Virus record (IMG/VR): IMGVR_UViG_3300009071_002060
Location: 62,001 to 116,711 of that record
Direction: 5' to 3' (one strand)
DNA from: an uncultured virus (IMG/VR IMGVR_UViG_3300009071_002060)
Lineage: Duplodnaviria > Heunggongvirae > Uroviricota > Caudoviricetes
Length of the DNA: 54,711 bases
Under the pieces are notes generated by a model. That model saw only the letters and a list, made by a program, of their open reading frames with translations. It made no database searches and was not told the origin of the DNA. Position numbers and translations under genes: made by a program. Numbering within the stretch: position 1 is the stretch's first letter; each line of letters starts with the position of its first letter. Of this stretch, positions 43,061-54,330 are shown in pieces.

Positions 43061-43247
43061 TCCTAACATTGTTCGCCCTAATCTGTTTAGCCACGAAAAA
43101 ACTATTAAAGAACAAGCTCAAACCCTTGGTGAAATGTCTCATCGTACTGACACATTGAGTCGTACAATTGAAGCACAAAATACACGAATACACAACCTCG
43201 AAACTACAGTATCGCAATTATTAGAAGTTTTACGTAGACGAGGTTAA
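43017..43247 (+). CDS. hypothetical coiled-coil protein
   Basis: 76 aa with a heptad-like C-terminus. Confidence 0.65.
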   Translation: MNKSMYKQKKKRAVNPNIVRPNLFSHEKTIKEQAQTLGEMSHRTDTLSRTIEAQNTRIHNLETTVSQLLEVLRRRG

Positions 43248-44122
43248 CTTAATATTTCCTTTAAAAGAAACTTACGAACAGCAAGTCCATTAGACATTTG
43301 TTCAAAGTACCTAGCACGTGGATCGTCATCGAACCATGTAGGCAATTCGTCAACCCTTGGTAACGGATGCATAACAATACACTTTTGATTTAGATGTTCA
43401 ACATCGCCTTCTTCAAACTTATATGATGCCCATGCTCCACGTTCAGCTTGAACTCGAGTGATATACAATACATCAGACTCTTGTAATACTGAATAGTTAA
43501 GTTCATTAAATGAAGCAAACGAAGGATCACTATAATCCATTGGTAACTGTAAGTTTGGTGGGCTAACTAGATTTACTTTACAATTAAACATCTTAAGCAC
43601 ATTAACCAAACTATGCACAGTTCTACCAAATTTTAAATCGCCCATTACTGTTATTGTAAGGCCATCTAGTGTTTGATATTCTTTATATATTGTATATAAG
43701 TCAAGCAGTGTTTGTGTTGGATGTTCGCCAACTCCGTCTCCAGCATTTATAATAGGTACATCACTAACTTCAGTCGCACGTAAAGCCGAACCAACTTCAG
43801 GATGTCTAAGTACAATACAATGCGTATAACTTCCTAAAGTGCGTATTGTATCTTCTAATGTTTCACCTTTGCTAACACTAGAATACTGTACATTATTGAT
43901 GCTGAGAACTTCATGTCCAAGATATTTTGCCGCCGCATAGAAACTAGAACTAGTTCGTGTACTAGGCTCATAAAATAGATTGCAAATTAATTTTTTAGTT
44001 TGGGATTCTTGGAATACTTTTAGTTTGCTAGTTTCGGACTTTTGAATTTTGTCCAATAGTAGCATTATAGATAATTTAGTATAATTGTTTAAGGTAATAA
44101 AATGTCTACCTTGTTTTATCAA
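43244..44122 (-). CDS. pyrB: aspartate carbamoyltransferase catalytic subunit
   Basis: FYEPSTRT, SSVSKGETLEDT, NAGDG.GEHPTQ, GDLKFGRTVHS, RVQAER and HPLPR. Confidence 0.95.
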   Translation of the reverse strand: MIKQGRHFITLNNYTKLSIMLLLDKIQKSETSKLKVFQESQTKKLICNLFYEPSTRTSSSFYAAAKYLGHEVLSINNVQYSSVSKGETLEDTIRTLGSYTHCIVLRHPEVGSALRATEVSDVPIINAGDGVGEHPTQTLLDLYTIYKEYQTLDGLTITVMGDLKFGRTVHSLVNVLKMFNCKVNLVSPPNLQLPMDYSDPSFASFNELNYSVLQESDVLYITRVQAERGAWASYKFEEGDVEHLNQKCIVMHPLPRVDELPTWFDDDPRARYFEQMSNGLAVRKFLLKEILS

Positions 44123-44897: not shown

Positions 44898-45233
44898 TTA
44901 TGAAGTAACAGTTTTCATGCGTTCTTCCCAATCAGCAGTTGCTGGATCGGGTGCAGGAAGGTCGGAATCATCATATTCTGCAGTGTCCGGTACATCACTA
45001 GAAACACCTTTCATGCGTTCTTCCCAATCAGCTGATGCAGGATCAGGTGCTGGTAAGTTATCTTCTTCACCATCACCATCCATATCAGGTTCTACCCAAC
45101 GTCCGATGATATCATCCCAATGACCGTAATCGTCTGGCCACCAGTCTGGGCGGTTATCTTTGTCAGTGAAAGTAGATTCTTCAGCAAGTTTACTTGCCGC
45201 AATAAAATCTTCTTCAGTTACATTCTCAGCCAT
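44898..45233 (-). CDS. very acidic protein with an internal duplication
   Basis: LPAPDPA[ST]ADWEERMK occurs twice; DNA repeat at about 44913 and 45009. Confidence 0.75.
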   Translation of the reverse strand: MAENVTEEDFIAASKLAEESTFTDKDNRPDWWPDDYGHWDDIIGRWVEPDMDGDGEEDNLPAPDPASADWEERMKGVSSDVPDTAEYDDSDLPAPDPATADWEERMKTVTS

Positions 45234-48640: not shown

Positions 48641-48795
48641 ACTGCTATCATTGTGGGACAGAATTAATTTGGGGTGGTGACCATGATTGTGATGAACACA
48701 TGGAAGACTATCTAATTGAAACAAATCTGTCATGTCCTAAGTGTAATAGTCTTGTAATAGTTTATTACCCAAAAGAAGAAGGAGAAGATGTTTGA
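48637..48795 (+). CDS. small zinc-ribbon protein (52 aa)
   Basis: Manually translated MNCYHCGTELIWGGDHD...NLSCPKCNS (two CxxC). Confidence 0.75.
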   Translation: MNCYHCGTELIWGGDHDCDEHMEDYLIETNLSCPKCNSLVIVYYPKEEGEDV

Positions 48796-49202
48796 CCCCT
48801 GTGCTTTACATATTAATGCGAACTGATCTGGACAGTATGAATCCAGGCAAAGCAATGGCACAAGCCAGTCATGCTAGTAATGCATTTGTTAACCACGATA
48901 TGAACGTCAACACTATTATCGGTCACATCGCCAGCAACATGAGAGAGGACTGGAAACATCAGACTGAACAAGGGTTTGGTACTGTATTGGTATTAGGTGT
49001 AACAGAAAGTCAAATGCGAACCGCGGTCACAGTTGCAACAGTATCCAACTTTGTAAGTGGTATAGTACACGATCCAACCTATCCATTACGCGATGGTGAC
49101 ACCACACATTTTATTCCACTGGATACATGTGGTTATGTATTTGGTGACAAAGATGATCTATTGCTACAATCGATCTTGGGCAATTTTGAATTGCACTATT
49201 GA
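48792..49202 (+). CDS. peptidyl-tRNA hydrolase 2 (PTH2)-like protein
   Basis: ILMRTDL.SMNPGKAMAQASHA...W...G..TVLVL...VHD...T. Confidence 0.75.
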   Translation: MTPVLYILMRTDLDSMNPGKAMAQASHASNAFVNHDMNVNTIIGHIASNMREDWKHQTEQGFGTVLVLGVTESQMRTAVTVATVSNFVSGIVHDPTYPLRDGDTTHFIPLDTCGYVFGDKDDLLLQSILGNFELHY

Positions 49203-49846: not shown

Positions 49847-50608
49847 TCACAGATCTTTATAAAGTCTAAGAATCTCTGTTACGGCTGGATCACGTTGAAT
49901 ATCTGTACCTGTAAATTCTACTCCTGTAATATGGTCTAGTTTTCCATAATTGTCAACTAAACGTTTAAAATCTAATAGACCGTTCTCAGGATCTTTGCGA
50001 TCCGCTTGTCTGGTATCTCCAGTGACAACAATCTTACTTCTTTCGCCTAAGCGGGTCAACAACATTTTCATTTGACCTGGGGTCGCGTTTTGCATTTCGT
50101 CTGCAATAATATAGCTATTCTTAAATGTTCGACCTCGCATAAAAGCTAGTGGGGATATTTCCAATACAGAATCTTCTAGCATTTTATTGATTTGGGCTTT
50201 CGTGTAGTATTCTTGAATATAATCAAAAATTGGTCTAGTCCATGGAGCCATTTTTTCATTTAAGTCTCCTGGTAGGAACCCATGTTTCTCATCATCAACT
50301 CCCACAGCCGGGCGAGTAACTACGATTTTATTAAATTCTCCTTCTCGTAATAATTTTAGGGCTGTAATCACGGCAAGCATTGTTTTACCAGTGCCTGCTG
50401 GTCCTGTTGCAAAAACAATCTTGTTTGTTTCCGATTCTAACATATCTATATATGTTTCTTGTTTAAGACTTTTAGGAATAAGTGTGATTTTAGTCTTCTT
50501 TTGACGGTATCTGTCAAAATCAACTACATTCTGATCGAATGCTGGATGCTGATAGTTTTGTTTGGATTCGCGTTGTTTACGAGCGAGTGCTCTCTTTTTT
50601 CTAGACAA
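49847..50608 (-). CDS. phoH: PhoH family ATPase
   Basis: GPAGTGKT, TRP, GFLPGD..EK, FMRGRTF, DEMQN, LTRLG and GD..Q.D; TTG start with AGGAGG SD. Confidence 0.95.
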   Translation of the reverse strand: MSRKKRALARKQRESKQNYQHPAFDQNVVDFDRYRQKKTKITLIPKSLKQETYIDMLESETNKIVFATGPAGTGKTMLAVITALKLLREGEFNKIVVTRPAVGVDDEKHGFLPGDLNEKMAPWTRPIFDYIQEYYTKAQINKMLEDSVLEISPLAFMRGRTFKNSYIIADEMQNATPGQMKMLLTRLGERSKIVVTGDTRQADRKDPENGLLDFKRLVDNYGKLDHITGVEFTGTDIQRDPAVTEILRLYKDL

Positions 50609-50725
50609 TTTGTTAGCCTCCTATGCTTGTTATGGTGTCCACAGCTAGGAATCTTACATTGGTTGCTAAACTTATACGTGGACGTTAACAACCAGTGTAA
50701 GGTCTGTGTCCACTATTAATATTTA
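50609..50725 (-). ncRNA. candidate structured cis-regulatory 5' leader of phoH
   Basis: TAAATA promoter, 17-bp stem, loop GUCCAC complementary to two flanking GUGGAC copies, and an SD-sequestering hairpin. Confidence 0.55.
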
Positions 50726-50840
50726 AACCTATGACATCAATCATAAAGTGTACATTTAAGATTGACCTTATCGAAGCTAATTATATGCCACATAAGATTT
50801 GTCCAAAGGTAAATACACTAAACAACAGAAGGTGCCCAAG

Positions 50841-51401
50841 ATGTCATCAGCCGCAGTATTACACGACATTATAGATAACGTCAAAAACATATATCAAAAT
50901 TCAAGTAGTATTAGTACACTTATGGATTTTGAACGTGTACTTGATACTCTTGACTTATATAGTTTTAAAAATTGGCAATCAGGTGAAATTGTTGAAGGTC
51001 CTATCTTTGAAAAGTATTTTGTTACTGTTACATTAATGTTTCCATATAGAAAAATGCCCGACCCCGACGGAGCACAACGTTTATTAGATTATGATTGTCA
51101 TGTAAGATTTCGCAGGAGTGAACTTGAATCACCAGTTCAAGTTAAAGGTCCTGAAGATTACGAAGGTGGCACAAAGTATCCTAAAATGGAACGTTATCCA
51201 ATTTGGTTAGTTGAAATTGTTATGACAAAATCATTGATGTCAGAAATTTCACGTGGTAGTGTTGAAATACAAGGTGATCAAATCAATGTTGAAGAATTAG
51301 AATCTGCTTATGAACAAGGCGCTGACGAACAAGAGGTGTCAGGTGACGTTGTAGCAGACAATGATGCAACAGGTGACGAAGTAGGGAGTGAAGTAGCATA
51401 A
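50841..51401 (+). CDS. hypothetical late protein
   Basis: TAAATA at 50810 makes ATG 50841 likely; LMDFERVLD.LDLY..KNW...MPDPDG. Confidence 0.8.
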   Translation: MSSAAVLHDIIDNVKNIYQNSSSISTLMDFERVLDTLDLYSFKNWQSGEIVEGPIFEKYFVTVTLMFPYRKMPDPDGAQRLLDYDCHVRFRRSELESPVQVKGPEDYEGGTKYPKMERYPIWLVEIVMTKSLMSEISRGSVEIQGDQINVEELESAYEQGADEQEVSGDVVADNDATGDEVGSEVA

Positions 51402-52845: not shown

Positions 52846-53463
52846 ATGAACTTTGAATTTACAGAAGACCAACTGGACCAAATGGTACCTAGGTGTAAGC
52901 ATACAGAAGAGCTTTACGAAGCACTATTAGATGTATGTCCCCGTTATGAAATTAACACTGAAGACCGTTTAGCGGCATTTGTTGCTCAGTGTGGTCATGA
53001 AAGTGCAGATTTTAATACACTTAAAGAAAATCTAAACTATTCTGGAGATGCATTATGTCGTGTGTGGCCTAGACATTTTGACCAAGACAATAAAGAGTTT
53101 TATCATCGTAACCCAGAACGTATTGCAAATCGTGCATACCGTGATAGAATGGGAAACGGCAGTGAAGAAAGTGGTGACGGTTGGCGTTATAGAGGACGTG
53201 GTGCTATCCAACTAACTGGTTGTCATAACTATACCAAGTTTGCTGATTACAACGAAATGGATGTTGGAGATGCTGTTGAGTATCTTGAAACTCTTAAAGG
53301 AGCAGTTGAAAGTGCGGCTTGGTATTGGCTAGAGCATGGATTAAATGAAATGGCTGACGACAGAGATAACACTAAAATGACAAAGAGAATCAATGGTGGA
53401 ACACATGGCATTGAGGATCGAAAAGAAAGACTCATCAGGAACCTAGAGGTTCTGTTAGGATAA
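52846..53463 (+). CDS. glycoside hydrolase family 19 endolysin
   Basis: AAFVAQCGHES, ENLNYS, GDGWRYRGRGAIQLTG..NY and TKRINGG; TAAATA at 52805. Confidence 0.93.
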   Translation: MNFEFTEDQLDQMVPRCKHTEELYEALLDVCPRYEINTEDRLAAFVAQCGHESADFNTLKENLNYSGDALCRVWPRHFDQDNKEFYHRNPERIANRAYRDRMGNGSEESGDGWRYRGRGAIQLTGCHNYTKFADYNEMDVGDAVEYLETLKGAVESAAWYWLEHGLNEMADDRDNTKMTKRINGGTHGIEDRKERLIRNLEVLLG

Positions 53464-53467
53464 AAAA

Positions 53468-53974
53468 ATGTTTGCGAGTATTGGATTAAAAATTGCAATA
53501 GGAATTGGTATCATTGGAATTGCTGGTGGTGCGTGGTTCTATGTACAAAACCTACAATCTAAATTAGATTTAGCGGCAGAACGCCAGGCTAGAACAATGG
53601 ATGTAGTTAATTCTCAAGTGGCGGCACTAAACCAATTACAAGAAGATATTAAAAAAGTGCAACAAGTAACCAATACACTCAACGAGAAAATAGCAGAAGC
53701 AAACGCATCTGTAAGTAAACTTGACGATAAATTTAACAAGAATAGCTCAGGTAAGGCAAGAGATATCGGCAAGGATGCAGAAGCAAAGCCCGAAGTAGTA
53801 GAGAAAATTATAAACAGAGCAACTAAAGATGCAATTAGATGTGGTGAACTCCTTACCGGTGCACCACTTCTTCCTAAAGAAACTAACAGTCAATGTCCCG
53901 AGCTAACTGTAACTAACTTTAAAAAAGAAGATAAAGCAGATAACAAGGAAGACATTAGGAAGTCAGTAAAATGA
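53468..53974 (+). CDS. i-spanin-like inner-membrane coiled-coil protein
   Basis: N-terminal TM segment plus long coiled coil, directly after the endolysin. Confidence 0.65.
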   Translation: MFASIGLKIAIGIGIIGIAGGAWFYVQNLQSKLDLAAERQARTMDVVNSQVAALNQLQEDIKKVQQVTNTLNEKIAEANASVSKLDDKFNKNSSGKARDIGKDAEAKPEVVEKIINRATKDAIRCGELLTGAPLLPKETNSQCPELTVTNFKKEDKADNKEDIRKSVK

Positions 53975-54330
53975 AAAAAATAATTTTAATTGGAGCACTG
54001 TTATTTGTAATGACTGGTTGTTCTAGTATCAAAGAAACACTAGCAATTAAACCTGAGATTGTAGAGAGACCACCATTGGTACTTCCAGACTTAGTACCAG
54101 CAAAAGGATATGACTTTAACTTTATTATTATTACAAAAGATAACTTTGATAAAAAACTTAAAGAATTAAAAGAAAGCGGAGTTGATGTTGTTTATTTTGC
54201 ATTGACAGATGAAGGTTATAAAGCATTAAGTTTGAGCGTTGCAGAGCTAAGACGCTACATTGCACAACAGAATGCAACAATTCGTGCTTATAAAGAGTAC
54301 TATCAACCCGACGAACCTGCTAAAAAATAA
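53971..54330 (+). CDS. o-spanin-like lipoprotein
   Basis: MTGC lipobox and Pro-rich segment; follows the i-spanin-like gene. Confidence 0.65.
   Translation: MKKIILIGALLFVMTGCSSIKETLAIKPEIVERPPLVLPDLVPAKGYDFNFIIITKDNFDKKLKELKESGVDVVYFALTDEGYKALSLSVAELRRYIAQQNATIRAYKEYYQPDEPAKK

Follow-up and report, generated by a model that had tools for sequence, protein, structure and literature searches.

Autogenous control through leader structure is known from genes 32 and 43 of phage T4, as outlined in PMC3014915. The phoH leader described here is alike in combining structure upstream of the ribosome site of a phage mRNA with a putative nucleic-acid-binding protein and feedback, the last being our proposal. 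In gene 32, the operator consists of a fixed pseudoknot and an unstructured A+U tract that is coated by the protein (PMC3014915, in outline), whereas the phoH leader has rival folds and hides its Shine-Dalgarno sequence (SD) by pairing. In the 5' UTR of the MS2 maturation gene, the fold adopted during synthesis keeps an anti-SD strand occupied so that translation can proceed, and at a later stage the SD is covered by a rival fold (described in PMC4615214). The phoH leader is similar in this respect, but unlike its levivirus counterpart it belongs to the late mRNA of a DNA phage, the strand that switches lies at the predicted 5' end and can pair with a second, conserved partner, and the OFF state is not always the more stable fold. 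Hairpins in T4 e, soc, 49 and I-TevI likewise bury the SD or start codon in a helix just downstream of a TAAATA-type late promoter, but there the late transcript lacks the inhibitory strand (PMC3014915, in outline). The phoH leader has no inhibitory strand upstream of the late start, as a length gate of the e/soc type would have; all of its strands lie 3' of the late promoter, so that one transcript can adopt both folds. Translational riboswitch platforms use the exchange of anti-SD and anti-anti-SD strands. The logic of the phoH leader is the same, but it has no conserved aptamer core and no match in Rfam.

In phages, phoH is usually annotated as a phosphate-starvation gene, and to our knowledge its role during infection is not established. 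Twelve candidate structured RNAs within 25 bp of phage PhoH genes are listed by Fremin et al. 2023, of which 10 are flagged as terminators (PMC10690425). Two marine, unflagged motifs, DNAVirus_3467 (74 nt) and DNAVirus_5585 (89 nt), could be sister leaders, as far as the supplementary listing allows a comparison. The main text of that paper does not name phoH and offers no two-state model for the PhoH motifs, and a term search of the main text of Weinberg 2017 (PMC5737381) did not return the gene. We found no published account of a phage phoH leader as an RNA motif, pseudoknot or translational regulator. The first-pass annotation had offered the leader as a candidate new RNA, and it is indeed new to Rfam: the covariance models gave no match in the window at gathering score, none at E ≤ 10 in positions 50550-50800 and none in 10 related loci. 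A blastn search for leader homologs in cultured phages returned only two chance matches at E = 1. Sequence-pattern scans gave mostly chance matches, with phoH downstream of 6 of 74 in one scan and 1 of 119 in another; a further scan had 17 viral matches, four of them at phoH loci that were already known, and 57 in cellular genomes, none of them at phoH, and yet another returned only four known phoH loci.

Two predicted rival folds in the phoH leader

The window, i.e. the whole stretch of 54,711 nucleotides analysed here, is part of a 116.7-kb virus record that is about 34% complete. Judging from near-identical records of up to 228 kb at 65% completeness, the genome is about 350 kb in size. A leader RNA of 105 bases precedes phoH of this marine jumbo phage on the minus strand. 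Upstream of it, a virion structural gene (PHROG 12928; 50799-51401, plus strand) is read divergently and has a TAAATA of its own at 50810-50815; its true start is likely the ATG near 50841. The same divergent layout is found in Pseudomonas phage PA5oct, and a homolog of the divergent gene is present in the locus of 110 of 184 leaders; a search with this gene yielded two near-identical records. Elsewhere, the window holds an aspartate/ornithine carbamoyltransferase-family gene (Pfam OTCace_N and OTCace; 43244-44122, minus strand), which is probably pyrB, an acidic 111-residue ORF in which a segment of about 17 residues is duplicated (44898-45233, minus strand), a peptidyl-tRNA hydrolase gene of the PTH2 family (48792-49202, plus strand) and a lysis block with a chitinase-like endolysin followed by two Rz-like spanins (52846-54330, plus strand).

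Inspection of the sequence located every leader element claimed in the first-pass annotation on the minus strand. TAAATA at 50720-50725 is a predicted promoter core of the T4 late type, from which transcription would start near 50714. The transcript would thus begin with strand a (GUGGACACAG, 50704-50713), the switching strand, of which the first 9 nt are invariant in all four leaders of the close clade. It is followed by the 5' arm of a long stem, S2 (50685-50701), which pairs with a 3' arm at 50653-50669 over 17 positions, including one C-A and one U-G, and carries compensatory changes among the four close leaders. Within the loop lies a' (GUCCAC, 50678-50683), the proximal partner of strand a, which pairs with it at six of six positions in each of the four. 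The distal partner, a'' (CUGUGGACAC, 50635-50644), is followed by the SD (AGGAGG, 50617-50622), which is invariant in the close clade, and by the UUG start codon 8 nt downstream.

The leader folds better than most shuffled versions (z -2.34; 3 of 200 shuffles equally good), and among 25 TAAATA-led candidate leaders of the genome record only that of phoH and one terminator-like stem have a fold energy below -25 kcal. Simple counts are unremarkable: GTGGACAC occurs twice in the window, as it does at least twice in 46 of 100 shuffles, and TAAATA is found 49 times where 79 are expected. The case for the leader therefore rests on its relatives.

The T4 late promoter is an 8-bp TATA box about one turn 5' of the start (PMC2988020) and is spelled TATAAATA in PMC3014915. 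A late sigma factor of the gp55 type is encoded in both near-complete relatives; none was detected in any of the three partial records, among them the genome of the window. For PA5oct, TATAATA and TTGAC motifs are reported, and phoH goes unmentioned in the part of that paper available to us (PMC7318152). Marine metatranscriptome contigs from four runs of one study span phoH and its leader, and cross the promoter in three of the four; such contigs may include DNA and consequently inform on neither start site nor expression level.

The close clade comprises four distinct leaders only, that of the window and L156, L001 and L204, with PhoH proteins 83% (L156, over a partial gene) and 74% (L001 and L204) identical to that of the window. 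Since MAFFT misaligned S2 in these leaders, pairs were read in register by script. All three relatives retain strand a and GUCCAC, and preserve S2 via compensatory changes. In the window, GUGGACAC is present both at 50713-50706 and at 50642-50635, and it had been suggested that the loop pairs with the 5' copy in the OFF state and with the 3' copy in the ON state. The proposed ON pairing amounts to -11.1 kcal in the window and falls to between -2.4 and -2.7 kcal in all three relatives; what is kept in all four leaders is instead a pairing of the 5' strand with the distal strand. In the relatives, the distal strand is a complement of the 5' strand rather than a GUGGACAC repeat, and the a:a'' helix has 9-10 pairs in each of them. 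In the window, the two "copies" pair with each other because GUG-GA-CAC is quasi-palindromic, giving 8 pairs and a tandem G-A, a feature that had been overlooked. A natural variant at 50707, seen in one contig, breaks the repeat and keeps the a:a'' pair as G-U. The conserved rival of a:a' is accordingly a:a'', and the ON state as previously drawn would at best be limited to the genome of the window. The conserved logic is that of one 5' strand with two rival partners.

In the model that follows from this wiring, strand a would pair with a'' in the ON state, enclosing S2 and leaving the ribosome site free. The OFF state would combine the a:a' hairpin with a long helix in which a'', the 3' arm of S2, or both cover the SD, the spacer and UUG; the S2 arm would there pair with the spacer and start-codon region. 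As computed for the window, opening of the region from SD to start costs 3.5 kcal in ON and 11.6 kcal in OFF, with the two folds differing by 1.7 kcal. In all four close leaders, 11-12 bases of the ribosome site pair with far-upstream strands in OFF and none do so in ON; in L204, a 15-bp helix takes up the end of the SD and UUG. In the window and L156, the OFF helix includes the SD-masking hairpin (50618-50651) of the first-pass annotation, whose counterpart in L156 carries compensatory changes. The earlier view of the OFF state, with the 5' strand on GUCCAC and a downstream strand masking the SD, is thus borne out, as is the broader claim of a conserved two-state leader able to hide its SD, and the computed folds are mutually exclusive and gate the SD in the manner of riboswitch-type leaders. 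We consider it likely, judging from these models, that the leader operates as a switch between two folds.

The pseudoknot of a:a' and S2 that had been put forward as a stable OFF state fares less well. The topology is crossing in all four close leaders, yet the 3' arm of S2 is taken up by the OFF helix of L001 and L204, where S2 is thereby excluded and a pseudoknot cannot be the OFF state. Among 70 leaders examined across the family, 34 have a stem of at least 4 bp around the proximal partner and 36 have no enclosing stem. A linker of 6 nt is also short for a 17-bp stem in an H-type pseudoknot. A pseudoknot of this topology could form, and S2 may invade by way of it.

Conservation of the leader among phoH loci

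From 257 phoH loci we obtained 184 unique leaders, labelled with L-numbers. Of these, 176 have TAAATA no more than 150 nt from the start, six have TAAGTA and two have neither, and in 85% of the 182 leaders with a promoter the sixth base downstream of TAAATA is a G. phoH starts with UUG in 123 of the 184 although SDs are strong, suggesting that low or tunable initiation has been selected for. The leader of the window is the longest version of the design and the most elaborate leader of the set.

Among the 182 promoter-bearing leaders, 35 could not be scored because of short length or the lack of a partner. Of the long phoH leaders, 65 of 99 have a second, non-overlapping partner of strand a (p ≤ 0.05); the counts are 4 of 48 for short phoH leaders and 2 of 32 for control leaders led by TAAATA at genes other than phoH. 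At -7 kcal or stronger, the figures are 63 of 99 long phoH leaders vs 0 of 32 controls. A significant second partner is absent in 117 of 182, many of which consist of a single 5' hairpin or are very short; the cultured phages Atu_ph07 and Phosso belong to this group. The leader of PA5oct (L356:1288-1395) retains a 5' hairpin directly after TAAATA, and has a weak second partner just 5' of the SD, placed like a'', that is not significant (p = 0.25). On a FastTree tree the second-partner trait requires 17 changes, against a mean of 53 when shuffled. It is clustered, yet reappears across numerous clades whose strand sequences differ. Strand a varies by clade (GUGGAC, GUAGGAC, GUGAGC, GUGUUC, GGAGGC) and both partners track it, an observation that is partly circular as partners were selected for fit. 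Diverse phage clades have one three-strand leader design in common.

The effect on the ribosome site was computed for 70 of the 99 long leaders, selected at p ≤ 0.1. In 59 of them the site costs over 1 kcal more to open in the a:a' state, and in none does it cost less. When own and foreign ribosome sites were exchanged, native coupling was the stronger in 10 of 16 hand-defined clades (p = 0.065), so that coupling of the switch to the ribosome site is only suggestive for the family as a whole; in the close clade, the amplitude is 6.5 vs 1.6 with foreign sites. The energy balance of the two folds was considered as a selected trait and rejected, as 43 vs 43 of 70 leaders is equal to the control.

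In a subfamily of 22 members, each of the rival folds is retained in 98-99% of pair cells; the range for the folds counted within two subfamilies is 94-99%. Covariation in related phages had been named as a check on the leader, and within subfamilies double-sided compensatory changes are nearly absent: four counts gave 0, 1, 0 and 0. Such scarcity is expected for strands with two partners, but it provides no positive evidence from covariation.

Two variations on the leader deserve mention. In a clade of 22 leaders (L041, L045, L047, L050-L052, L058, L061-L065, L067, L068, L076, L078, L080 and kin), the switch is replaced by a leader of about 30-40 nt with a near-invariant 5' sequence resembling GCAGGUYG, which may bind a protein or pair with the start region. 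In another group (L022, L026, L032, L035, L037, L046, L049, L055, L135, L138, L143, L148 and L159), the strand that switches resembles an SD (GGAGG or GGGGG), and the distal strand chooses between decoy and real SD; two of these clades are among those with the largest computed switch amplitudes.

Folding order, trigger and competing explanations

We propose that, in aquatic jumbo phages related to PA5oct, the late mRNA of phoH carries in its leader a translational switch that acts in cis and is built on a 5'-terminal strand with two mutually exclusive partners. During transcription, strand a would first close the hairpin with a'; S2 would then displace this hairpin, a would join a'', and the SD would emerge free. 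With the a:a' hairpin held or re-formed, a'' and the 3' arm of S2 would come to lie over the SD and UUG. PhoH, a putative RNA-binding ATPase of a helicase-type family, would bring about the latter and so exert negative feedback on its own synthesis.

The folding order is seen in computed prefixes. In the close clade a:a' forms first, then S2, then a:a'', all before the SD emerges; a:a' precedes a:a'' in nine of nine leaders tested. Pairing of a' with strand a has a probability of about 1.0 in prefixes of 42-54 nt. The barrier between ON and OFF is 21-29 kcal in the close clade, with a median of 15.7 in the 70 leaders, all upper bounds from direct, pseudoknot-free paths. From 10 to 37 °C, the difference between ON and OFF in the close clade changes by no more than 2.3 kcal, and hence there is no thermometer signal. 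With a gap of about 2 kcal but a high barrier, interconversion of the folds in this model probably needs a protein. High barriers and a product that is a putative RNA-ATPase lead us to prefer PhoH feedback, and we infer that PhoH itself, one of the triggers suggested in the first-pass annotation, is the likeliest. The complete scheme of a two-fold switch with feedback by PhoH is more tentative than the switch, and we would rate it at somewhat less than an even chance.

The MS2 maturation-gene leader (as described in PMC4615214) provides a precedent for a timer that needs no factor, in which ON is trapped during transcription, ribosomes load and the RNA relaxes to OFF. Consistent with this, ON forms ahead of the emergence of the ribosome site in nine of nine prefix series, and the a:a' fold wins at full length in three of nine leaders (L001, L204 and L032), the winner in the window being an SD-paired fold. 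We nevertheless find such a timer unlikely: the close-clade barriers, albeit upper bounds, look too high for unaided relaxation, and ON is still favoured at full length in L156, L012, L019, L029 and L066.

Rather unlikely, too, is that no switching occurs in vivo, with the 5'-terminal stem protecting the mRNA and a' acting as a transient guide that occupies strand a until a'' is made. This would leave the long helices between upstream strands and the SD or start in L204, L001, L032 and the 22-member subfamily without a purpose, although it agrees with the pairing of the mRNA 5' end in both folds, with the many short leaders that keep just a 5' hairpin and with the small ribosome-site effect in clades c011, c088 and c012.

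We regard as improbable a start-site gate of the T4 gene e type, in which a longer early or a 5'-trimmed RNA would be OFF and the late TAAATA transcript ON. A sigma-70-like site (11 of 12 matches; 50897-50868, minus strand) lies within the divergent virion gene and is directed at phoH. The transcript predicted from it folds OFF, with an opening cost of 9.7 vs 4.9, and in the window the cost rises to 7-8 when the RNA is shortened by 1-9 bases at its 5' end. Against a gate, the site is not conserved (a score of 11 in 1 of 178 loci, with scores on the opposite strand similarly distributed), 5' extensions of up to 60 nt have scarcely any effect in the window, and trimming of 1-3 nt has no effect in L156, L001 and L204.

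A small-molecule riboswitch, whose pseudoknotted OFF fold would be stabilised by e.g. a nucleotide or a ligand related to phosphate, would fit the anti-SD/anti-anti-SD logic and the 34 of 70 leaders that are pseudoknot-compatible, but is highly improbable. The riboswitch-like character suggested in the first-pass annotation would call for an aptamer; visual inspection of eight subfamily alignments placed most of the conserved bases in a helix of one or the other fold, and only the 5' G-U start and the SD are common to subfamilies. The lack of a common unpaired core in these alignments argues against an aptamer, as do strand sequences that are replaced from clade to clade and the absence of an Rfam match. 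Alternative pseudoknots of the loop with the 5' copy or the 3' copy are scarcely credible: both duplexes reach about -11 kcal in the genome of the window alone, and in three of three distinct close relatives the pairing with the 3' copy is lost and a:a'' kept.

PhoH and the possible control of its dose

Returning to feedback by PhoH, the protein of the window (253 residues; 49847-50608, minus strand; UUG start) matches Pfam PF02562 (E 4e-68; 229 bits, cutoff 27) and PDB 3b85 (E 1.5e-47), and does not reach the equivalog cutoffs of NCBIfam for either cellular PhoH or PhoH2. phoH was matched in 3,747 of 50,697 cultured-phage records, the closest cultured proteins being those of PA5oct, a jumbo phage of Pseudomonas, with its relatives (55%) and of Atu_ph07 (45%). 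Walker A and B, RPAV/GFLPG and RGRT motifs are intact and the N-terminal tail is basic; across loci, the motifs are 97-100% conserved, bar two positions of GDTRQ. We take the RPAV, GFLPG and RGRT motifs of phage PhoH to be the RNA-binding motifs RRB1 and RRB2. In mycobacterial PhoH2, the PhoH domain is described as an RNA helicase (PMC7390352). The mycobacterial PhoH2 target motif shows enrichment over all leaders taken together (158 vs 105), and hardly any clade by clade (15.3 vs 12.6). That PhoH is an RNA-remodelling ATPase that drives the trapped ON fold to OFF, or clamps the first 5' hairpin, and that the clade as a whole has a helicase-operated mRNA switch, is an extension of the feedback scheme that we hold to be doubtful.

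In conclusion, the phoH leader is a real, conserved and uncatalogued translational leader with two folds, and its most likely function is to limit the amount of PhoH protein made. It offers a short and defined RNA for probing binding and unwinding by phage PhoH, with rival helices that are cleanly separable by mutation. If PhoH does act on its own leader, phage PhoH would have its first defined RNA substrate, and a conserved switch on the phoH mRNA would mean that the dose of PhoH in these phages is controlled after transcription.
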